A stretch of 25,492 nt of DNA from Armatimonadota bacterium (GTDB taxonomy: Bacteria > Actinomycetota > Acidimicrobiia > Spongiisociales > UBA5794). Every line of letters starts with the position of its first letter. Position 1 is the first letter of the stretch. Shown in pieces: positions 3,082 through 17,650 of the stretch. Made by a program: the position numbers and the translations under genes. The notes beneath the pieces were generated by a model that saw only the letters and a list, made by a program, of their open reading frames with translations, searched no databases and had not been told where the DNA came from. Where the stretch lies: NCBI GenBank assembly GCA_008501565.1, contig QQUL01000260.1, positions 1-25,492 on the forward strand, given 5' to 3'.

Positions 3082-3105
3082 GCGAGGCTGACGCCTCGCT
3101 GTTTC
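3081..3105 (+). terminator. Hairpin AGCGAGG-ctgacg-CCTCGCT followed by GTTTC
   Basis: A 7-bp perfect inverted repeat immediately after the stop of the rpmB/cold-shock unit, with a short U tract. Confidence 0.5.
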
Positions 3106-3206
3106 AGCTCTCAGCTCTCAGCTCCGAGCTTTTCGCAGCAGTGCCACGCCGCCATCACTCGGGGCTCATTTCTGGGCTGTGAGCCGTGAGCTGTAGGCTG
3201 TAAGCT
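3102..3206. repeat. Inverted pair of heptamer tandem arrays, (TCTCAGC)n at 3102-3136 and (AGCTGTR)n at 3175-3206
   Basis: tttcagc-tctcagc-tctcagc-tccgagc-ttttcgc, then ggctgtg-agccgtg-agctgta-ggctgta-agct; the two arrays are approximate reverse complements. Confidence 0.85.
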
Positions 3207-8897: not shown

Positions 8898-9512
8898 CTA
8901 CATCCCGTCGAGAATCTCCTTGCGCTTGCGCTCGTACTCTTCCTCTGAGACCAGTCCTTCATCGCGCAGGGCTGCAAGTTTGCGGATCGCTTCAGCGCCG
9001 TCATCTTTCGGACGCTTGACGCCACCACCCGCCGCAAGATCCATCGAACGCGCTTCACGAGTCTTGTAGAGAATCGCCTGGAATGTGTCCGGGTGCGGGA
9101 TGTTGTCGAAGTCGCTCTGTCCGGTCTCCCCCGCCGACTCGACCAGGAGATCCCCCGCCCCGAGGATCCGTTCGAACACCGACTGGGAAAAGTTGACGTT
9201 TGCGATGCCCTCAAGGGGGATTTCGATTCCACGCTGGGCGATGAGGCCGCGGCGCGTGATCAATCGCTCTGTGGTGAGCACGTAGCGGGTGAACCACCAA
9301 TCGACGAGTGGCCTGACCACGAACCACACGAGAACGATGACCAGAGCGGCAACCTTGAACCAGAAGCCAGCATCAAACCAGTATGCGAGCAGCCCGAAGA
9401 CGACAAGTGCGCCGACCCCCCACAAGGCGGGAACGAACAGCAGTTTCCAGTGTGGGCGAAACGAAGTGACGATCGATTCGCCTTCGGTGAGTGCATCTTC
9501 GGGCCAAGGCAT
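8898..9512 (-). CDS. Membrane protein with bacterial PH domain (bPH_2) and C-terminal SHOCT domain
   Basis: FRPHWK start, two TM helices, YVLTTERLITRRGLI...IPLEGIANV...ERILGAGDLLVESAGE (bPH_2), and LAALRDEGLVSEEEYERKRKEIL (SHOCT). Confidence 0.9.
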   Translation of the reverse strand: MPWPEDALTEGESIVTSFRPHWKLLFVPALWGVGALVVFGLLAYWFDAGFWFKVAALVIVLVWFVVRPLVDWWFTRYVLTTERLITRRGLIAQRGIEIPLEGIANVNFSQSVFERILGAGDLLVESAGETGQSDFDNIPHPDTFQAILYKTREARSMDLAAGGGVKRPKDDGAEAIRKLAALRDEGLVSEEEYERKRKEILDGM

Positions 9513-9519
9513 GGGAGAG

Positions 9520-9638
9520 AGCTTACAGCTTTCGGCTTTCAGCTCACAGCTTCAGAGCAGGGAAACCGAACAGTGAACCACGACAACCATGGGGACGAAA
9601 CGACCCATGCTGAAAGCTGAAAGCTGAGAGCTGAAAGC
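9520..9638. repeat. Inverted pair of heptamer tandem arrays, (AGCTTTC)n at 9520-9558 and (GCTGAAA)n at 9609-9638
   Basis: agcttac-agctttc-ggctttc-agctcac-agcttca and gctgaaa-gctgaaa-gctgaga-gctgaaa-gc; reverse-complementary, same family as 3102-3206. Confidence 0.9.
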
Positions 9639-9661
9639 AACGAGCGAAGCGAGTCCACGCG

Positions 9662-9700
9662 AGAAACCCCAAGGAAGCCGGAGCCCCCTTGGGGTGTTCT
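9662..9700 (-). terminator. 3' terminal hairpin / intrinsic terminator of candidate ncRNA A
   Basis: Minus strand ACCCCAAGG-GG-GC-UCCG-GC-UU-CCUUGGGGU followed by UUCUC. Confidence 0.75.
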
Positions 9701-10024
9701 CAGTGCCAGCCCTTGCAGTCTTTCGACCTCCGGTCTGGCGCCCCGCCGGTGTTGCCACCTGCGGTGCGGTCGATGCGAACCGAGGCTCGCACCTGTACCT
9801 TCCGGTGACCCTCGCCGACCGAAGTCTGCGTGAGTAGGGCCGAAGCCCTGCGCCCGAGAGCGCTACCTTCCGGTGTTGGCTGGTCCGTCGCCTCCCCTTG
9901 CGGTTCGGTTCGGTTTCCCGCCCGTTCCCATCCGTTGCCGGTTGGGAACCCCGCTGATTGACGGTCCCCGGCTTGCGCCGGTTGCGTTCGAGCGGTCCGG
10001 TTTGGGTTTCCCCTCTCCGGTTCC
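9662..10024 (-). ncRNA. Candidate highly structured ncRNA A (~360 nt), family unassigned
   Basis: On the minus strand about 12 hairpins carry stable tetraloops: GGG-GAAA-CCC, CCGGC-GCAA-GCCGG, CCG-GCAA-CGG, CGG-GAAA-CCG, CC-GCAA-GG, ACC-GGAA-GGU (twice), AGGGC-UUCG-GCCCU, GAC-UUCG-GUC, UGCGAGC-CUCG-GUUCGCA, GGUG-GCAA-CACC and GUC-GAAA-GAC. It is bounded by a promoter and a terminator and has no credible ORF. Confidence 0.75.
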
Positions 10025-10027
10025 AGA

Positions 10028-10107
10028 ACAATGCCATGAGTCGTGCACCAATTCAAGCCAGATCGCTTGTTGGTTTTCGCGAGTGACGAGTAGTTTTCGC
10101 GAGGTGC
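10028..10107 (-). promoter_or_regulatory. Promoter of ncRNA A with upstream GCGAAAAC direct repeat
   Basis: -35 TTGAAT (10056-10051), 17-nt spacer, -10 CATTGT (10033-10028); GCGAAAAC at 10100-10093 and 10080-10073 (20-bp period). Confidence 0.7.
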
Positions 10108-10120
10108 GCAAAGGACAACC

Positions 10121-10262
10121 GATTACAGATTTCAGATCACGGACAGGACACCGTCGAACTCGCGGCACCCCGATTCCATTATCCAATATCGAGGTTCGTC
10201 TTGGTTTCGCTTCCGGAGTCTGAATCCAAAATCCGTAATCCGTAATCCGAGATCCCAGATCC
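10121..10262. repeat. Inverted pair of heptamer tandem arrays, (GATTACA)n at 10121-10146 and (GTAATCC)n at 10221-10262
   Basis: gattaca-gatttca-gatcacg-gacagga and tgaatcc-aaaatcc-gtaatcc-gtaatcc-gagatcc-cagatcc; a second heptamer family, lying between the two candidate ncRNAs. Confidence 0.85.
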
Positions 10263-10313
10263 AACAACAAACCCCAAGGAAGCTGTGGCCGAAGCCGTAG
10301 CCCCCTCGGGGTT
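10262..10313 (-). terminator. 3' terminal hairpin / intrinsic terminator of candidate ncRNA B
   Basis: Minus strand AACCCCGAGG-GGGCUAC-GGC-UUCG-GCC-ACAGCUU-CCUUGGGGUU followed by UGUUGUU; the stem is nearly identical in sequence to that of ncRNA A. Confidence 0.75.
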
Positions 10314-10542
10314 CGTTGCCCTGGATGCCCGACGGTCGCCCGCCCGGTTCCCAGGAGTGTCCTTTCGGCTGCCAGCTAGGCCGTCACGTCCGATTGGACT
10401 GATCTCTCGAAGGCTGGGCTCCCTCTTGAGATCGCTGCCTCTGCCGAAGCAGAAGCCCGGCCCCGGTTTCCCGGGTGGGTCAGCCGAAGCCGATCCCTGC
10501 CGCACTTTCCAGGTTCACCTCAAGGGTTCACCTCTCAAGCAC
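10262..10542 (-). ncRNA. Candidate structured ncRNA B (~275 nt), family unassigned
   Basis: Minus-strand hairpins UCGGC-UUCG-GCUGA, CCCGG-GAAA-CCGGG, UCUGC-UUCG-GCAGA, GAUCUC...GAGAUC, GUCC-AAUC-GGAC, CC-GAAA-GG, CGG-GCGA-CCG and AGG-UGAA-CC (twice). The 5' GUGCUUGA can pair with UCGGGCAU just before the terminator. It is bounded by a promoter and a terminator. Confidence 0.72.
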
Positions 10543-10547
10543 AAGCG

Positions 10548-10628
10548 AACCTAGAGGGGATCTCTGCGGGTCGCAACCGCGATCTCTGGTTGGTTTTCGC
10601 GTAATAGCAGGAGTTTTCGCGGAGGTGC
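10548..10628 (-). promoter_or_regulatory. Promoter of ncRNA B with upstream GCGAAAAC direct repeat
   Basis: -35 TTGCGA (10576-10571), 17-nt spacer, -10 TAGGTT (10553-10548); GCGAAAAC at 10620-10613 and 10600-10593, with the same spacing to the -35 as in promoter A. Confidence 0.72.
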
Positions 10629-10689
10629 TGAGAGCTGCCGTTGATGACCTCGCGAACACCGCAGCGTTCTTGAGGTCGGAATCCGAAAG

Positions 10690-10711
10690 TGTCACACGGT
10701 GGCGGTATGGT
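10690..10711 (+). promoter_or_regulatory. PafBC/RecA-NDp-like DNA-damage promoter (TGTCAC-N10-TATGGT), leaderless start
   Basis: TGTCAC 10690-10695, 10 nt, TATGGT 10706-10711; the ATG begins 7 nt after the -10 (10718). One mismatch to TGTCRG. Confidence 0.6.
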
Positions 10712-10717
10712 CATGCC

Positions 10718-11614
10718 ATGACCTCCGATACCCACGAACGAACAACCCTCACGACCCTCTCACCATCGCGGGCGAGCGATTTCAAGCAGTGCCCACAGAT
10801 GTACAAGTTCAAGTCGATCGACCGTATCCCGACGGAGCCAACGATCCATCAGGCACGGGGCACGGCGGCGCATCTGGCTCTCGAACGGCTCTTTGAACAG
10901 CCGAGGGCGCAGCGAACCCCCGAGGCTCTGTACCGCCTCTTCAGGGATGCATGGGCAGAACTCAAGAAGACGGAATACCCAGACCTGTTCGATTCTGTCG
11001 AGGACGAGCGAGCATGGGGAATCGAAAGCCTCGGGCTGCTTGCGGGATACTTCTCGATCGAGGACCCAACCTCCTTTGAGCCCGAAGCGCTGGAAATGGA
11101 CCTCACCGTCGCTATCGATGACATGACCATCCGAGGCATTCTCGATCGGATGGAACGCATCACGACAACCGCGCCCGACGGCACCGAATCCGAACTCCTC
11201 GTCATCACCGACTACAAGACGGGCAAGGCACCGCCTGAGCGATATGCATCCCAGGCCTTCTTTGCCCTCAAGATCTACGCATTGTTGATTCGCACGACGC
11301 AAGGCATCACACCCGATCGCGTCCGGTTGTTGTATCTCAACGGACCAACCGAGTACACGCTCGACATCACCGACAGCCAACTCGACGCGATGCATCAGCA
11401 GCTCACGGCGTTGTGGCAGGCAATCAACAAGGCGATCCGCACGGATACGTGGCCGACGAGTCAGTCAGTACTCTGCGACTGGTGCGACTTCAAGGACACC
11501 GTGTGCCCGGCATTCAATACCGCTGCTGAGATAGCAGTGAACCGCGCAGCGATTGACGCTGCAGCAGCCGCGAAGATCGCTCGACCAACGTCAGATTCTG
11601 TCAGTGGTACCTGA
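10718..11614 (+). CDS. Stand-alone RecB-family PD-(D/E)XK nuclease with 4-Cys Fe-S staple (resembles the mycobacterial Rv2119 type)
   Basis: LSPSRASDFKQCP, GTAAHLALE, RGILDRME, ITDYKTG and CDWCDFKDTVC; 298 aa from ATG 10718. Confidence 0.88.
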   Translation: MTSDTHERTTLTTLSPSRASDFKQCPQMYKFKSIDRIPTEPTIHQARGTAAHLALERLFEQPRAQRTPEALYRLFRDAWAELKKTEYPDLFDSVEDERAWGIESLGLLAGYFSIEDPTSFEPEALEMDLTVAIDDMTIRGILDRMERITTTAPDGTESELLVITDYKTGKAPPERYASQAFFALKIYALLIRTTQGITPDRVRLLYLNGPTEYTLDITDSQLDAMHQQLTALWQAINKAIRTDTWPTSQSVLCDWCDFKDTVCPAFNTAAEIAVNRAAIDAAAAAKIARPTSDSVSGT

Positions 11615-11620: not shown

Positions 11621-11626
11621 GCCTTG

Positions 11627-14587
11627 ATGGAAACGATCGACGTAGCAGAAACACGGATCGACCCATCTGAGTGGGACGCCCACATCGCTCCGCCCGGATA
11701 TGCGCAAATGGTCGTTGGGGGGCCGGGCACCGGAAAGACAGAATTCCTCTGCCGTCGTGTGGTGGCTGCGATCAACGACGGCTGCGATCCGGCATCGATC
11801 GCAGTTCTCACCTTCTCCCGCCGCTCGGTCAACGACGTCCGGACCCGGCTGTTTTCTGCAATCGGGTCGGCGTCGTATCGGGTGCAGGTCGCGACATACC
11901 ACTCGCTGGCGAACCGGCTGGTCGAAGCCCATCACGCTGCCCTCGGTTGGGCAGCTGCACCAACGGTGCTCGCAGGTCCCGAACATGAACGATTCGTCCT
12001 GTCGATCCTTGAGCAGGAAGACCCCAACAACTGGCGAGCCCCGTATCGACCAATCGTCAAAACACCAGCGATGGCATCGGAGGTCACCGACTTCATTCTT
12101 CGGTTCCACGAACAGACGATGACGATCGCCGATCTGGAACGTTCATCCGTGCCCGAGTGGGAGGGGCTGGCCGGGTTTCTTCGACGCTACGACGAGGAAC
12201 TCACCGCAACGGGTCGCATCGACTATGGCCGATTGCTGAACGAGGCCGTGCTGGTACTCGAAACGAACCCCGGCATCGTCGCGAGTTACTCCCATGTCTT
12301 CGCAGACGAGTATCAGGACACGTCCCACGCCCAGGCACGGCTGCTCTTCGGGCTCGCACAGCACTCGAAATCACTCACGGTCGCCGGGGATCCGTACCAG
12401 TCGATCTATTCGTTCCGTGGAACCGATCTCGACAACGTCCTCAACTTTCCCACCCACGCTGCCAGTCAACTTGGCACGAAAGCCGACCGGCTCGTCCTTA
12501 CGACCTCGTTCCGCGTTCCCGAGCAAATCCTTGAGGCAGCCGTCAACGTCACCGGCCGTGCACTTCCGGGTGCCGCCGGAAAGGTCAAGAGCATTCGCAC
12601 CCGTGGCTCCGTCGCGACACACGTGTTCGACAACCCCGACGCCGAAAGCGAGTGGATCGCAAGCGACATCGAGCGCCTCCACCTCGTCGACGGCATCGCG
12701 CTCTCCCGTATTGCGGTGTTCACCCGCTCGGGTGGAAGCTTTCACCATCGGGTGGCAGCATCCCTCGACCGGCGATCGCTCCCGCACACCCTCACCCTTG
12801 AACAACTCGAAGATCAGCCGGTGGTGCGGTTCGTCCATGATCTCGTTGCCGTCGCAGGATCCGACGAGAGCATCGTCGACCGGCCAGACGTCACGGACAC
12901 CATGCGAAGCATCCTGTTGGGGCCGTTCATGGCGGCAGCCCCAGCGACCGTGAACGCCGTCGTCAGGCGAGTGAACGATGGAGCGGAGTGGTCGACGGAG
13001 ATCGCTGAACGCATCCCACATGGGCGCGCAATCGCGTCGCTCCTCAACGACCACGCCTGGGCAACGGAGATGCCGGCCGAACAGGGACTTTGGCACCTGT
13101 GGAAGTCGCTCCCCCCACTCCACGGAATCGCGGTTGACGACGACAGAATCCCGGATCGGAGGGCGTGGTCTGCGTTCGCCCAGTCTGTGACCCGATTCGG
13201 TTCGCGCGCCCCGCACGCGACACTGCGCGACCAGCAGATCCTCTCGGCAACATCCGACATAGAGGCCGATCCCCTCTTCAGTTTCCGAGCCGGGCCGGCT
13301 GCAGGCGTGGCAATCGCCACTCTGCACGCTGCAAAGGGCACCGAGTACGACGCGGTGTACATAGCTCATGCTGTTGAGGGTTTGTTGCCCGATCTTCGGA
13401 CGAAGGACTCGCTGCTCAAGACTCGGCTGCTGAACCCTCAGCTACCCGAAGACCCAAGCGCGTATGTGCAGTTTCGCCTGAGTGAGGAGCGTCGCCTTGC
13501 ATACACGGCGATGACCCGGGCGACCGACCGCGTCGTGTGGACCGCGACCGTTGTCGACAACCCATCCGAGCAGATCGAACCGAGCCGCTTCCTTCGCCAG
13601 ATCGGTGAGCCGATTCGACCGGTCGGTGTCGATCGACCGCTGACACGTCGCGGCTACGAAGCTGCTCTCCGGCGGACAATGCACGATCCCCTCGCTCTTG
13701 ACGTTGAGCGGCTTGCCGCGATGATCATTCTCGCCGAGGGACCGGATCACGGTTTCGACAGTCCGACCGACCGCTATGGCGTAGCCGTCGAAGGCACCGA
13801 TCAAGGCTTTGTCCCGTCCGATCATCGGCTTTCCCCAAGCCAGGCGAACACCTATGACCAATGTCCACGCAGGTTTGCGTTTGACAGATTTGCGACTCGA
13901 TTGCAGACGTCAACGTTCAACATGGAACTCGGAACCCTCATCCACAAGGTGCTCGAGCTTGCAGAAGCGGAAACCATCGAGTCCGGTCGTGAACGAAGCA
14001 CCTTGGCGAGGGCATTGGAGATTCTGGAGAGCCTTTGGGACGAGTACGACTTCGGCTCTGCTCCGGTCGCTTCGTCGTGGCACCGCAGAGCCGTGTCAAT
14101 CCTTGAGCATCAGTATCAGAAGTGGCCGGCGTCCGGTCCTCCTGTGCGGGCAGAGGTCTCGCTGTCACTCCAACTCGACGGAACGAACTGGAAAGGGACC
14201 GTCGACCGGATCGAACGGATCGGGGACGCGTTGAAGATCGTCGACTACAAGACCTCGAAGTCGGTGCCGACAGTCGCGGAGGCGGCTGCATCCCTGCAAC
14301 TCGGGTTCTATGTCCTTGCGACGGCTGCCGATCCCGAGTTGGCAACCATCGGAACGGTCCGCGGAGCCGAGTTCTGGTTTCCTGCGCCCGAACCAAGCAA
14401 GGACGCCATCAAGACTCGATCGTTTGACATGACGAACCTTGACGCAGTCCGCGAGCGACTCGAAACGATCGCACACGCCGTCCACGACGAAGACTTCCCG
14501 GCGACCCCGAACAGTGACTGCCATCGCTGTGATTTCCTGTCCGTTTGCCCTGCACAGAAAGAGGGACGGGAGGCGTTTGCGAGATGA
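11627..14587 (+). CDS. adnA: AdnA-like UvrD/SF1A helicase fused to a RecB-type nuclease with Fe-S staple
   Basis: GGPGTGKT, DEYQD, GDPYQSIYSFRG, TTSFR, TLHAAKGTEY, YTAMTRA; nuclease LSPSQANTYDQCP, GTVDRIE, IVDYKTS, CHRCDFLSVC. It is the first of two tandem helicase-nucleases, as in the actinobacterial adnAB pair. Confidence 0.85.
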   Translation: METIDVAETRIDPSEWDAHIAPPGYAQMVVGGPGTGKTEFLCRRVVAAINDGCDPASIAVLTFSRRSVNDVRTRLFSAIGSASYRVQVATYHSLANRLVEAHHAALGWAAAPTVLAGPEHERFVLSILEQEDPNNWRAPYRPIVKTPAMASEVTDFILRFHEQTMTIADLERSSVPEWEGLAGFLRRYDEELTATGRIDYGRLLNEAVLVLETNPGIVASYSHVFADEYQDTSHAQARLLFGLAQHSKSLTVAGDPYQSIYSFRGTDLDNVLNFPTHAASQLGTKADRLVLTTSFRVPEQILEAAVNVTGRALPGAAGKVKSIRTRGSVATHVFDNPDAESEWIASDIERLHLVDGIALSRIAVFTRSGGSFHHRVAASLDRRSLPHTLTLEQLEDQPVVRFVHDLVAVAGSDESIVDRPDVTDTMRSILLGPFMAAAPATVNAVVRRVNDGAEWSTEIAERIPHGRAIASLLNDHAWATEMPAEQGLWHLWKSLPPLHGIAVDDDRIPDRRAWSAFAQSVTRFGSRAPHATLRDQQILSATSDIEADPLFSFRAGPAAGVAIATLHAAKGTEYDAVYIAHAVEGLLPDLRTKDSLLKTRLLNPQLPEDPSAYVQFRLSEERRLAYTAMTRATDRVVWTATVVDNPSEQIEPSRFLRQIGEPIRPVGVDRPLTRRGYEAALRRTMHDPLALDVERLAAMIILAEGPDHGFDSPTDRYGVAVEGTDQGFVPSDHRLSPSQANTYDQCPRRFAFDRFATRLQTSTFNMELGTLIHKVLELAEAETIESGRERSTLARALEILESLWDEYDFGSAPVASSWHRRAVSILEHQYQKWPASGPPVRAEVSLSLQLDGTNWKGTVDRIERIGDALKIVDYKTSKSVPTVAEAAASLQLGFYVLATAADPELATIGTVRGAEFWFPAPEPSKDAIKTRSFDMTNLDAVRERLETIAHAVHDEDFPATPNSDCHRCDFLSVCPAQKEGREAFAR

Positions 14588-17500
14588 CCCTTGTCCCGAC
14601 CAGCGAACAACACGAGATCATCGCCTATCCCAAGCGGCACGTCCGGGTCGCTGCCGGTGCCGGGACCGGAAAGACCACAACCATCGTCGAACGCCTTGGA
14701 GCGTTCGTTGAGGGTGGAACATCGCCGACGCGGGCACTTGGCATCACATTCACGGTGAAAGCAGCCGACGAGCTGAGGAATCGGCTCAGAGAGCGTCTGG
14801 CGTCCGAAACCGACAGCGAAGAGGTCGAAGTTGCCACCTATCACGGATTTGCGACGTCGATCCTCGACGAGTTCGGTCCGTTGGTCGGGTTTGAACCCTC
14901 GTCGCTGCTGCTTGACGACGGCCATCGATCCGAACTCGGACAGCTTGTCCTCAGATCGACACCATCCAATCTGGATCTCACCGCCATGGATGCACGGGTT
15001 GCAGACCTCCTCGATCTCAATGACGCCCTTGACCGTCACCTGCTGTCAACCCAACAGCTCATCGATGGCGCCCCCGCTCACGGCGACGACCGGACCATGG
15101 AGACGTGGGAAAAACGTATCGATTTGGCGACCGTGGCAGCCACGTACCGATCAGAGAAGGAGCGGCTCGGTCTCATCGAGTTCTCCGACCTGATCGCCAA
15201 GGCCGTGGAGGTGGTGACCTCGTACCCCGATATCGCAGCCGAACTTGCTGCACGCTATGACGTCGTGTTGCTTGACGAGTACCAAGACACCGACCCTGCT
15301 CAACGGATTCTCCTCACAGCCATCTTCGGCCCATCCGCCGCGGTAACAGCCGTCGGCGATTCCGACCAGACGATCTACGAGTGGCGTGGTGCGTCCCTTG
15401 ACAACTTCGATGCGTTCCCGGAGCACTTTCCACGCAGCGATGGCGAACCGACGGAAACACTCCCGTTGAGCCTGAACCGTCGCTCCGACCGACTCATCAT
15501 CGATCTTGCCAACACCATCAAAGCTGAGCTGCCGTCGATTGAGGGCTCTGAACCACTTGTCCCCCGCCCCGAGGCAGGCGACGGATCCCTGGTAGTTGCG
15601 TGGTTTGGCTCCGAACGTGAGGAAGCGGGCTGGATAGCCGAAGACATCCTGCGTCGACACGACGACGGCACCGCTTTCAGCGACACGGCCATCCTGGTGC
15701 GGAAACGTGCCTGGATCCCCTTGCTGGTTGCCGCGCTGCGTGAATTCGATATCCCGACGTCGGTCAGTGACCCTGGCACCTTGCTCCAGATTCCGGAGGT
15801 CGCAGATGTCCTGGCGTGGCTACGGATCGTGTCGAATCCCGATGCCGAGCCGGCACTGCTCCGAATTCTCATGGGAGGTCAATACCGGTTGGGATTGGCC
15901 GACCTCAACGCTCTCAAGGTGCACGCCGACACCATCGACGCCGATTCGATCATGGCATCGGTGATGACACCATCACAGGTCGACGGTCTCAGCCAGACGA
16001 CTGCTTCACAGCTCACTCGCTTCGCGGCGATCCATGAGGAGTTGATGCGGTACGCACAGGCAAACACAGTCGCCAATACGATCAATCAGATCATCACGAC
16101 GATCGGATTCTGGGACGAAGCGGCAGCGCTGCGTCCAGGCGAGGCGACGACGGCACGACTCAACATTGCCCGGTTCGTCAATGTGGCCAACGGGTGGCGA
16201 CCCATCGAAGGGCGACCCACGGTCAGCCGGTTCCTTCGCTACATCGATGCGTTGAACGAATCAGGGAGAGACGAAGCCCTCACCCCTCCCACAGCATCCG
16301 TCGTCGACGCGGTGGAACTCACCACCGTCCACGGGGCAAAGGGCCTCGAGTGGGGAACCGTCTATCTCCCCGGTCTTCAGGCGGATGGCTTCCCGATGTC
16401 TGCAAGGCGCCATGACGATCCCGACAGGCACGCCATGTTGCTTCCGTACGAACTCAGGCTCGACGCCGAGCACCTGTCAGAGCTCGCTGCAACCTCAGGG
16501 AACAGCCGAAAAGAACACCTCACTGAAAGAAACACGCAGAGCGAGCACCGGCTTGCGTATGTCGCCGTCACGCGCGCAAAGCACACGATCACGATGTCGG
16601 GTCACGTGTGGCAGGATCACCTCAAACGTCCGAAGAAGCCCTCGCCCTACCTGCTGATGGCACGGGACGTCCCGGGTGCCACGATTGGACCATGGGTCGA
16701 CGAACCGGGCGAACCACCAACGATTGCCCCGTTCTCCGACAGCGACACGGTTCCCGATCCGCTTTTCGGCCATGACGTGGGAACTGCCTTCCGCAAGATC
16801 ATCGCCGACCCGACCACCGTTGCCGCGGATTACCCAGAATTGGTCGATGCGGTGTCTGAGCGAACCCGTCAGCTCACGATTGAGATCGGAGATCTTTCAG
16901 AACCGACAGCCGATCCCACGCCGAAGCCCTTTTCGACTGCTGTGACGAACCTTGTCGCTCTTGCTCAGTGCCCTCTGAAGTTCAAGTGGGTGCACCACGA
17001 CAAACTCCCACGACGTCCGTCGAAAGCTGCCGTCCGAGGGACCGAGTTCCATCGAAAGGTCGAGCTCCACAACCTCGGAGTGATCTCCCTCGACGACGCT
17101 CTACCCGCCAGCTACGACGCCGTGGAGACTGACGAAGCGTTCGTCGACGAGGACTGGACGCCTTCGGATCCTTGGAGCGTCTTCGAAGCATCACGCTTCG
17201 CACACATGAGGGCCCGCTTCACCGAGGCACCGTTTGAATTCGCGATCGGATCGGGATCCATTCGAGGCAAAATCGATGCCATCTATGAACCATCACCCGG
17301 GATCTGGGAAATCGTTGACTACAAATCGGGACGACCCTCCGCAGATCCAGCCCGAATGGTCCAGCTCAAGGCGTATGCGGTTGCGGTCGCTGACGGTGCC
17401 GTGTCATCGGAGACACCCGAGGCGATGAGCGTTTCATTTGCCTACTTCGGCGGTACCGAAGCCGAAGAGATTTCCGAAGCCGTCGACGATCAATGGATTG

Positions 17501-17643
17501 CCGAGGCGAAGATCGAGATCGCCCGTCTGGTCGACATCGGCGCCGAGGGACCGTGGACCGCAACGCCATCACCCGCGTGCCGCTTCTGTGACTTCCTCGT
17601 CCACTGCGACGCAGGCAAGGCTTTTCTGACGTCTGACGTCTGA
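14584..17643 (+). CDS. adnB: AdnB-like UvrD/SF1A helicase fused to a RecB-type nuclease
   Basis: AGAGTGKT, DEYQD, GDSDQTIYEWRG, LNRRS, TVHGAKGLEW, YVAVTRAK; nuclease AQCP, GKIDAIY, IVDYKSG, QLKAYA, CRFCDFLVHC. ATGA overlap with the adnA stop. Confidence 0.87.
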   Translation: MTLVPTSEQHEIIAYPKRHVRVAAGAGTGKTTTIVERLGAFVEGGTSPTRALGITFTVKAADELRNRLRERLASETDSEEVEVATYHGFATSILDEFGPLVGFEPSSLLLDDGHRSELGQLVLRSTPSNLDLTAMDARVADLLDLNDALDRHLLSTQQLIDGAPAHGDDRTMETWEKRIDLATVAATYRSEKERLGLIEFSDLIAKAVEVVTSYPDIAAELAARYDVVLLDEYQDTDPAQRILLTAIFGPSAAVTAVGDSDQTIYEWRGASLDNFDAFPEHFPRSDGEPTETLPLSLNRRSDRLIIDLANTIKAELPSIEGSEPLVPRPEAGDGSLVVAWFGSEREEAGWIAEDILRRHDDGTAFSDTAILVRKRAWIPLLVAALREFDIPTSVSDPGTLLQIPEVADVLAWLRIVSNPDAEPALLRILMGGQYRLGLADLNALKVHADTIDADSIMASVMTPSQVDGLSQTTASQLTRFAAIHEELMRYAQANTVANTINQIITTIGFWDEAAALRPGEATTARLNIARFVNVANGWRPIEGRPTVSRFLRYIDALNESGRDEALTPPTASVVDAVELTTVHGAKGLEWGTVYLPGLQADGFPMSARRHDDPDRHAMLLPYELRLDAEHLSELAATSGNSRKEHLTERNTQSEHRLAYVAVTRAKHTITMSGHVWQDHLKRPKKPSPYLLMARDVPGATIGPWVDEPGEPPTIAPFSDSDTVPDPLFGHDVGTAFRKIIADPTTVAADYPELVDAVSERTRQLTIEIGDLSEPTADPTPKPFSTAVTNLVALAQCPLKFKWVHHDKLPRRPSKAAVRGTEFHRKVELHNLGVISLDDALPASYDAVETDEAFVDEDWTPSDPWSVFEASRFAHMRARFTEAPFEFAIGSGSIRGKIDAIYEPSPGIWEIVDYKSGRPSADPARMVQLKAYAVAVADGAVSSETPEAMSVSFAYFGGTEAEEISEAVDDQWIAEAKIEIARLVDIGAEGPWTATPSPACRFCDFLVHCDAGKAFLTSDV

Positions 17644-17650
17644 CGTCTGA
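17626..17650. repeat. (CTGACGT)x3.5 heptamer tandem repeat at the convergent adnB/dtd junction
   Basis: ctgacgt-ctgacgt-ctgacgt-ctga; it contains the adnB TGA stop. Confidence 0.85.

Follow-up and report, generated by a model that had tools for sequence, protein, structure and literature searches.

Two tandem non-coding RNA genes of an uncatalogued, order-wide family in Acidimicrobiia carry a promoter element also present upstream of replication genes

Several groups of structured bacterial RNAs resemble, in one respect or another, the two RNA genes described here. 6S RNA and, in Actinomycetia, Ms1 (MTS2823 / scr3559) and CoRP are abundant, lineage-specific structured RNAs of 200-500 nt, encoded by stand-alone genes with their own promoters. 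The gammaproteobacterial RNAs RsmX, RsmY, RsmZ, CsrB and CsrC are products of sibling genes, sometimes in tandem, each with an upstream regulator site and a terminator; they are very abundant, and their hairpin number and length vary between lineages. OmrA/B, PrrF1/2, Qrr1-5, the streptococcal csRNAs and GlmY/GlmZ are adjoining paralogues with near-identical promoters and terminators and diverged bodies. Finally, the raiA motif RNA, OLE, ROOL and GOLLD have ornate conserved folds, high abundance and a biochemical function still to be found. The present locus lies on contig QQUL01000260.1 (assembly GCA_008501565.1), a 25,492-nt stretch of a 2.14-Mb Acidimicrobiia genome (G000) that was analysed whole and is referred to below as the window; coordinates are window positions unless a contig is named. 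Its minus strand carries two RNA genes, RNA-B and RNA-A, and the evidence firmly supports their being independently transcribed, conserved, non-coding and highly structured siblings belonging to an uncatalogued family found across the order. Members of the Acidimicrobiia occur widely in water, sediment and wastewater, and their RNA biology is almost unexplored; no paper on their non-coding RNAs was found in the literature.

On the minus strand between 10628 and 9520, two units share a common layout of box pair, promoter, hairpin body and terminal stem, exactly as the original prediction, made from the sequence alone, had described them. Each unit has two CGCGAAAAC boxes 20 bp apart. In the first unit, that of RNA-B, the box centres lie at approximately -55 and -75 of the promoter, and the -35 starts 16 nt past the proximal box. 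The pattern GCGAAAAC-N12-GCGAAAAC is found twice in the window against 0.00 expected and in none of 100 shuffles; the exact pair has 2 sites in the entire genome, with none further when one mismatch is allowed. The consensus of 66 promoters reads CGCGAAAac-N11-CGCGAAAAC-nAACCAGCGnTnTnGC-TTGc-N17/18-TAnnTT. In RNA-A orthologues the promoter takes the form TTGCGA or TTGCGG with CATTGT or CAGAGT, its spacing unchanged. RNA-B opens with a 5' hairpin module, after which come a chain of tetraloop hairpins, the invariant hairpin GAGGG[AGCCCAG]CCUUC and, at 10311-10271, a terminal stem. RNA-A likewise begins with a 5' hairpin module and a tetraloop hairpin chain, and ends in the invariant 3' element UGAGAACACCCCAAGGGGGCUYCGGCUUCCUUGGGGUUUCUC, the stem of which occupies 9694-9666; the terminal stems of the two units are near-identical. 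A scan for E. coli-type promoters and terminators called neither unit (the -10 boxes are of TANNNT type and the terminator tails U-poor), so the promoter and terminator assignments rest on conservation: in the comparison of 66 promoters and 64 terminators, no unit lacked a conserved promoter or a terminator of its own.

All units have a 5' module in common, consisting of an outer stem that encloses a GGG-GNRA-CCC hairpin. RNA-A and RNA-B thus share both end modules and are therefore paralogues, which bears out the proposed origin by an old duplication. The accompanying observation that the bodies share no obvious primary sequence needs a correction, since both open with the same 5' module. That the two are co-regulated and independently transcribed structured RNAs, the central claim of the original prediction, is upheld by their own promoters and terminators, by separate coverage in RNA libraries and by covariation in both bodies.

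Both bodies fold far better than shuffled sequence (z-scores in Table 1). As had been anticipated, alignment of orthologues revealed compensatory changes in each, affecting 23 of 78 consensus pairs in RNA-A (10 orthologues) and 27 of 64 in RNA-B (11 orthologues). The consensus structures were derived with RNAalifold from the same alignments that were scored, making these counts supportive rather than a formal test. In a separate re-count of the alignments, 96% of cells in RNA-A and 95% in RNA-B were paired; the 23 and 27 pairs changed on both sides compare with 9.5 +/- 2.0 and 12.4 +/- 2.2 in column shuffles (0/300), and at most 8 pairs were changed on both sides when the partners were slid by 1-3 columns. 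The terminal stem behaves similarly: over 64 distinct elements, 95.4% of cells are paired, against at most 67% when slid, with GC/AU covariation at three positions of a basal stem that is otherwise invariant and an A.C mismatch kept in 35 copies. Among 69 units, 504 of the 699 predicted hairpin loops (72%) are GNRA or UNCG tetraloops, and CTTCGG occurs 187 times against 5 expected. The linkers between hairpins are mostly 3-4 nt long and purine-rich. Relatives gain or lose whole hairpins, RNA-B being 201 nt in G004 and G005 and 280 nt in the window.

A 161-codon open reading frame that overlaps RNA-A was considered as a gene and ruled out. No codon phase is favoured by the substitutions between orthologues (6/6/9 and 18/16/17, for example), close relatives differ by 1-nt indels, and each frame is interrupted by stops in some orthologue.

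Conservation within Acidimicrobiia, which the original prediction had expected of a functional system, is extensive. By DNA similarity, each of the 10 other genomes of the genus has both units, and the boxes and terminal stem are also present in other genera. Of 121 genomes examined from the order, 83 matched the terminal-stem pattern CCCCRAGRGGG-N6-26-YCTYGGGGT (by family: f1 19/21, f3 20/21, f6 12/13, f9 19/21, f5 3/3, f12 7/13, f10 0/20), while the reversed pattern used as a control matched none. In a phylum-wide sample the pattern was found in 7/7 genomes of the order and 0/24 of the other orders of the class; among the approximately 370 genomes sampled elsewhere in the phylum there were 4 matches, which lack a hairpin and appear to be chance. 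One f11 genome (L113) encodes a hairpin-rich RNA that is likewise driven by the boxes but ends differently, so absence of the exact pattern does not equate to absence of the family. Copy number ranges from 1 to 7, mostly 2-4 in tandem, and unit length from ~116 to 611 nt; both body types, A and B, can be recognised throughout the family. In G009 and G026 (L009:500-1130, L014:430-1130) an opposite-strand gene with a signal-peptide-like end lies between the two units, which therefore need not be adjacent. Families f5 and f6 contain arrays of 3-7 near-identical units with a period of 263-693 nt (G060:C69:160765-162191, G418:C24:20168-20734 and three contigs of G800), suggesting recent tandem amplification or gene conversion.

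Such near-identical tandem copies, the coming and going of whole hairpins between relatives and the richness of the window in dispersed repeats would also be expected of decaying repeats or of a selfish element with no function in the cell. This explanation, already disfavoured, is in our judgement extremely improbable. The units are found at one conserved site in the chromosome, between the same flanking genes, and they combine compensatory changes with order-wide conservation of promoter and terminator and with expression.

Expression was assessed by placing the contigs of four metatranscriptome runs on positions 9300-10900. Coverage was confined to 9658-10012 for RNA-A and to the conserved core of RNA-B at 10350-10435, with zero contig coverage on the bPH_2 gene downstream, the nuclease gene upstream, the promoters and the spacer. 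These silent flanks argue against carry-over of DNA. A 291-nt contig matches 9699-9989 with two differences, and a 221-nt contig reached a depth of 419 in a run of 3.2 million letters. Those contigs that cover the RNA-B core have different flanks and hence represent the RNAs of relatives. The strandless contigs cover both RNA bodies separately and nothing in between, in keeping with the two separate transcripts of the original prediction.

The same coverage bears on a possible role as cis-acting leaders, in which regulated read-through of the terminal stem would control the bPH_2 gene. Across the order, the last unit is followed by this bPH_2/SHOCT gene in the same orientation, and a unit stands directly upstream of it in relatives down to 50% protein identity, an arrangement that would suit a leader. 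The RNA contigs, however, end at the terminator and leave the bPH_2 gene uncovered. Every unit also has its own promoter and terminator, upstream units precede another unit rather than a gene, the opposite-strand gene separates the units in some genomes, and other genes follow some units (L051, L052). We therefore consider a leader function very unlikely.

No catalogued RNA was found to match, as the original prediction had supposed. Rfam 15 gave no match to the window at the gathering score; at E <= 10 the region returned noise only (mir-80 and CRISPR-DR19, mostly on the heptamer arrays described below), and the same was true of 15 related loci. RNase P RNA, tmRNA and signal recognition particle RNA are ruled out as identities because all three genes sit elsewhere in relatives, with strong scores. 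No Rfam model for the orphan large RNAs, that of the raiA motif RNA (RF03072) included, matched the window units. Some Acidimicrobiia encode the raiA motif RNA (PMC10861870); the genomes of 5 relatives gave no match to it, in a search whose controls were silent too. 6S RNA (RF00013) matched the window neither at the gathering score nor at E <= 10, and was not found in five cassette-bearing genomes (G000, G005, G007, G017 and G035) in a search to which control genomes responded. Rfam holds an Ms1 family (PMC9130861), and none such appeared among the matches to E = 10, a weak test given that Ms1 homologues are undetectable between genera.

The apparent lack of 6S RNA in these five genomes would suit RNAs that bind RNA polymerase, as a local counterpart of 6S, Ms1 and CoRP that tunes transcription capacity with growth or replication state. 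Actinobacteria use abundant, lineage-specific RNAs of 300-500 nt in this way, namely Ms1 (PMC9130861) and CoRP (PMC11077062), and the RNAs of the present family are abundant in RNA libraries. Since Ms1 homologues have no detectable sequence in common between genera, failure to find a match is compatible with a polymerase-binding function. The structures nevertheless make it rather unlikely. 6S RNA is a long irregular rod, closed at its ends and open in a central bubble, whereas both the minimum-free-energy and the consensus folds here are chains of short hairpins, with no closing stem and no long rod opening into a bubble at its centre. Unit lengths of ~116 to 611 nt are a poor fit to a fixed polymerase-mimicking shape. 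The neighbourhood differs as well: Ms1 is flanked by HAD-IB hydrolase and oxidoreductase genes, which are absent from this locus, where the neighbours are genes for a bPH_2/SHOCT protein and a PD-(D/E)XK nuclease with AdnAB-like genes.

On balance, and with modest confidence, we propose instead that RNA-A and RNA-B are stable, abundant, order-specific sibling RNAs that act in trans under the control of a replication-linked activator, probably by binding protein. There is strong support for the transcription of each gene alone from a housekeeping-type promoter, the -35 of which is 16 nt downstream of the tandem CGCGAAAAC boxes, and for a transcript in which the conserved 5' hairpin is followed by GNRA- or UUCG-capped hairpins, strung together by purine-rich linkers, and finally by the nearly invariant terminal stem; the 5' hairpin and 3' stem would protect the ends and stop transcription. 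A DNA-binding protein, probably an activator in view of the -55/-75 position of the boxes, is predicted to bind the box pair and to couple the RNAs to dnaA, nrdJ and dnaB, genes that have such a pair upstream as well. Two sequence-invariant parts, namely the base of the terminal stem, including its A.C mismatch, and RNA-B's AGCCCAG loop, are candidate contact points for a partner. Acting in trans, the RNAs would most likely hold or titrate a protein, by analogy with Rsm/Csr, 6S, Ms1 and CoRP; it is this analogy, together with the abundance of the RNAs and their variable hairpin number with few invariant elements, that leads us to favour a protein partner.

The seven-base loop AGCCCAG and its closing stem are identical in 11 RNA-B orthologues across the family, and neighbouring helices covary. 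Such a loop could alternatively belong to a base-pairing regulator: the exposed loop (AGCCCAGCC), and perhaps others, would pair with mRNAs, and the hairpin chain would serve stability. Sibling small RNAs with shared promoters are a common pattern (PMC4211561). The RNAs are, however, mostly paired, with linkers of 3-4 nt; RNA-A has no comparable invariant open loop; and the RNA-B loop is not kept outside the family, though the cassette is. Regulation by base pairing thus appears improbable. Pairing between the RNA-B loop and RNA-A was also considered and rejected, as a 6-nt complement in the same genome is not kept in orthologues.

The proposed coupling to replication derives from the distribution of the box pair. 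The exact pair was found in 88 of 401 genomes of the class, against 2 matches for a reversed-pattern control. When the genome of the window was scanned with a position-weight matrix for box pairs, RNA-A (38.2) and RNA-B (34.1) ranked first, and the further promoters of this kind for which the original prediction had suggested looking proved to lie upstream of dnaA (29.4) and nrdJ (27.9), the next score being 22.2. In six relatives from five genera the pair is again upstream of nrdJ, which encodes a class II ribonucleotide reductase, and there it precedes a promoter with NrdR and DnaA boxes. Two f12 genomes and 26 small, AT-rich genomes from another order have the pair upstream of dnaA, and two further genera have it upstream of dnaB. 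At nrdJ the -35 is once more 16 nt after the proximal box; in the genome of the window (G000:C229:2133-2560) the arrangement is CGCGAAAGA, 10 nt, CGCGAAAAC, then TTGCGT 16 nt on. At dnaA (G000:C95:1434-1470) it is CGCGAAAAC, 11 nt, CGCGAAACA, ~400 nt upstream of the gene. That the RNA-gene promoters have a rare control element in common with dnaA, nrdJ and dnaB is therefore well supported, if indirectly.

More tentatively, these genes and the RNAs may form one replication-linked regulon, in which a single DNA-binding protein acting at tandem CGCGAAAAC boxes would drive dnaA, dnaB and nrdJ together with the hairpin-chain RNAs as effectors. Such effectors might, for example, hold a protein of replication, repair or transcription in time with DNA synthesis. 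If true, this doubtful but attractive possibility would define a new class of cell-cycle-coupled bacterial RNA.

Several points weigh against the proposed function. The protein that binds the boxes is hypothetical; to our knowledge the box is unlike any actinobacterial regulator site, which leaves us without a candidate. At dnaA and nrdJ, 280-400 nt separate the pair from the start codon, and at nrdJ a distinct NrdR-box promoter lies in between; what the pair drives directly may therefore be an upstream RNA and not the gene itself. Contact of the RNAs with a protein is predicted by analogy, and the bodies contain no repeated single-stranded protein-binding motif, the linkers being only short and purine-rich. 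The shuffle tests overstate the support for the folds, since the structures were drawn from the scored alignments and the sequences are related. The metatranscriptome contigs are strandless and the transcript ends are predicted ones; and the exact RNA-B sequence appeared in one run only, which is probably of DNA, so that transcription of RNA-B rests on the contigs of relatives.

Some further sites resemble the box pair or accompany it. In the genome of the window, nrdJ has a second promoter, placed before the start codon and carrying NrdR-type boxes together with two boxes of DnaA type (TGTGGACAA). The upstream region thus holds two stacked promoters, between which a small RNA may be encoded. 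The fifth-ranked and weak box pair (G000:C337:95-150) is followed by TGTAATCCACAC, a DnaA-box-like word, and is possibly origin-proximal. One f3 genus (G360, G395; L058-L063, L103) has the box pair at no fewer than 5 dispersed sites, in each case followed by a conserved GGGCCC-CCCCC-CCACCACCGT..TTGGT..GACGCG element and a short hairpin region unlike the hairpin-chain RNAs. Past the terminal stem, the tail GGGGTTTCTCGCG (9657-9669 in the window, and the ends of most units in A2) is conserved beyond the needs of a terminator; its reverse complement, CGCGAGAAAC, resembles the upstream box, and the tail could be a third, inverted box.

The genes on either side of the units are themselves conserved neighbours. 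Relatives of the bPH_2 protein come from metagenome-assembled genomes of uncultured Acidimicrobiia. On the other side, a divergent gene for a stand-alone PD-(D/E)XK nuclease lies upstream of the first unit in 5/5 family-level loci tested, and in the window it is followed by AdnA/AdnB-like helicase-nuclease genes (11624-17643). Control of the nuclease gene by the same boxes was considered and is not indicated, because the distance from box to start is not fixed, measuring ~100 nt in the window and ~60 nt in G005. The nuclease gene appears to be leaderless (region 10684-10720), its ATG at 10718 coming 6 nt after TATGGT. Upstream is GTGTCACACGG, as in PafBC-type DNA-damage promoters, and in relatives (L053, L055, L056) a similar TGTGTCAC-N8-TAAACA follows the box pair at nrdJ.

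Each unit is followed by a pair of inverted heptamer arrays, which the original prediction had made part of the cassette. The arrays are real at both units. They are, however, a dispersed genome-wide repeat that is missing or reduced at the same sites in relatives, and they do not belong to the RNA unit: at the unit sites they are reduced or absent in G005 and G007, and between the units they are nearly absent in G005. Seven is the commonest array period of the genome (336 arrays on 156 contigs), and copies of the AGCTTTC type occur on many other contigs, as they do in relatives. Other period-7 families include ACGTCAG, AAAGCTG and ACCGATG, often as inverted pairs in intergenic DNA, and further period-7 arrays are found in the window at 3104-3206 and 17625-17650.

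Table 1. Features of the RNA locus and its surroundings, in window coordinates
Feature	Position	Strand	Description and basis
Box pair, unit 1	10620-10613 + 10600-10593	-	CGCGAAAAC, 12 nt, CGCGAAAAC; kept in 66 promoters of the order
RNA-B promoter	10576-10548	-	TTGCGA 10576-10571, N17, TAGGTT 10553-10548; sequence and conservation
RNA-B, ~280 nt	10263..10542	-	Predicted ends; fold z = -5.3
Heptamer arrays, inverted, GGATTAC type, between units	10121..10262		Sequence; TRF array 10230-10249
Box pair, unit 2	10100-10093 + 10080-10073	-	Exact pattern match; kept in 66 promoters of the order
RNA-A promoter	10056-10028	-	TTGAAT 10056-10051, N17, CATTGT 10033-10028; conservation
RNA-A, ~365 nt	9660..10024	-	Predicted ends; fold z = -6.8
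Heptamer arrays, inverted, AGCTTTC type, after unit 2	9520..9638		I1-I3, 83-94% complementary
bPH_2 + SHOCT membrane protein, downstream neighbour	8898..9512	-	Pfam
Stand-alone PD-(D/E)XK (RecB-type) nuclease, divergent neighbour	10718..11614	+	Pfam

The family described here is present in most genomes of one order and is readily recovered from metatranscriptomes, without having an entry in the catalogue. The element that its promoters share gives a handle on the control of replication genes in this lineage and on the role of large orphan RNAs; the box pair could be used as bait for the regulator, and the RNAs as bait for their partner.

Among known systems, the Csr/Rsm RNAs are alike in the organisation of their genes and have no sequence or Rfam relation to the RNAs of the window. 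They present GGA motifs in their loops, whereas the loops here are structural GNRA and UUCG tetraloops; CsrA (PF02599) was found in only 1 of 5 cassette-bearing genomes; and, unlike in Csr/Rsm, the upstream element is common to replication genes. The raiA motif RNA, OLE, ROOL and GOLLD keep one fixed multi-helix core, in contrast to bodies that gain and lose entire hairpins. Sibling small RNAs of the OmrA/B type measure 80-200 nt, expose single-stranded seeds and mostly depend on a chaperone, whereas the units here span 116-611 nt and are almost fully paired. In kind, if not by homology, RNA-A and RNA-B nonetheless constitute a sibling small RNA gene set, being paralogues that have the same upstream element and each its own promoter and terminator.

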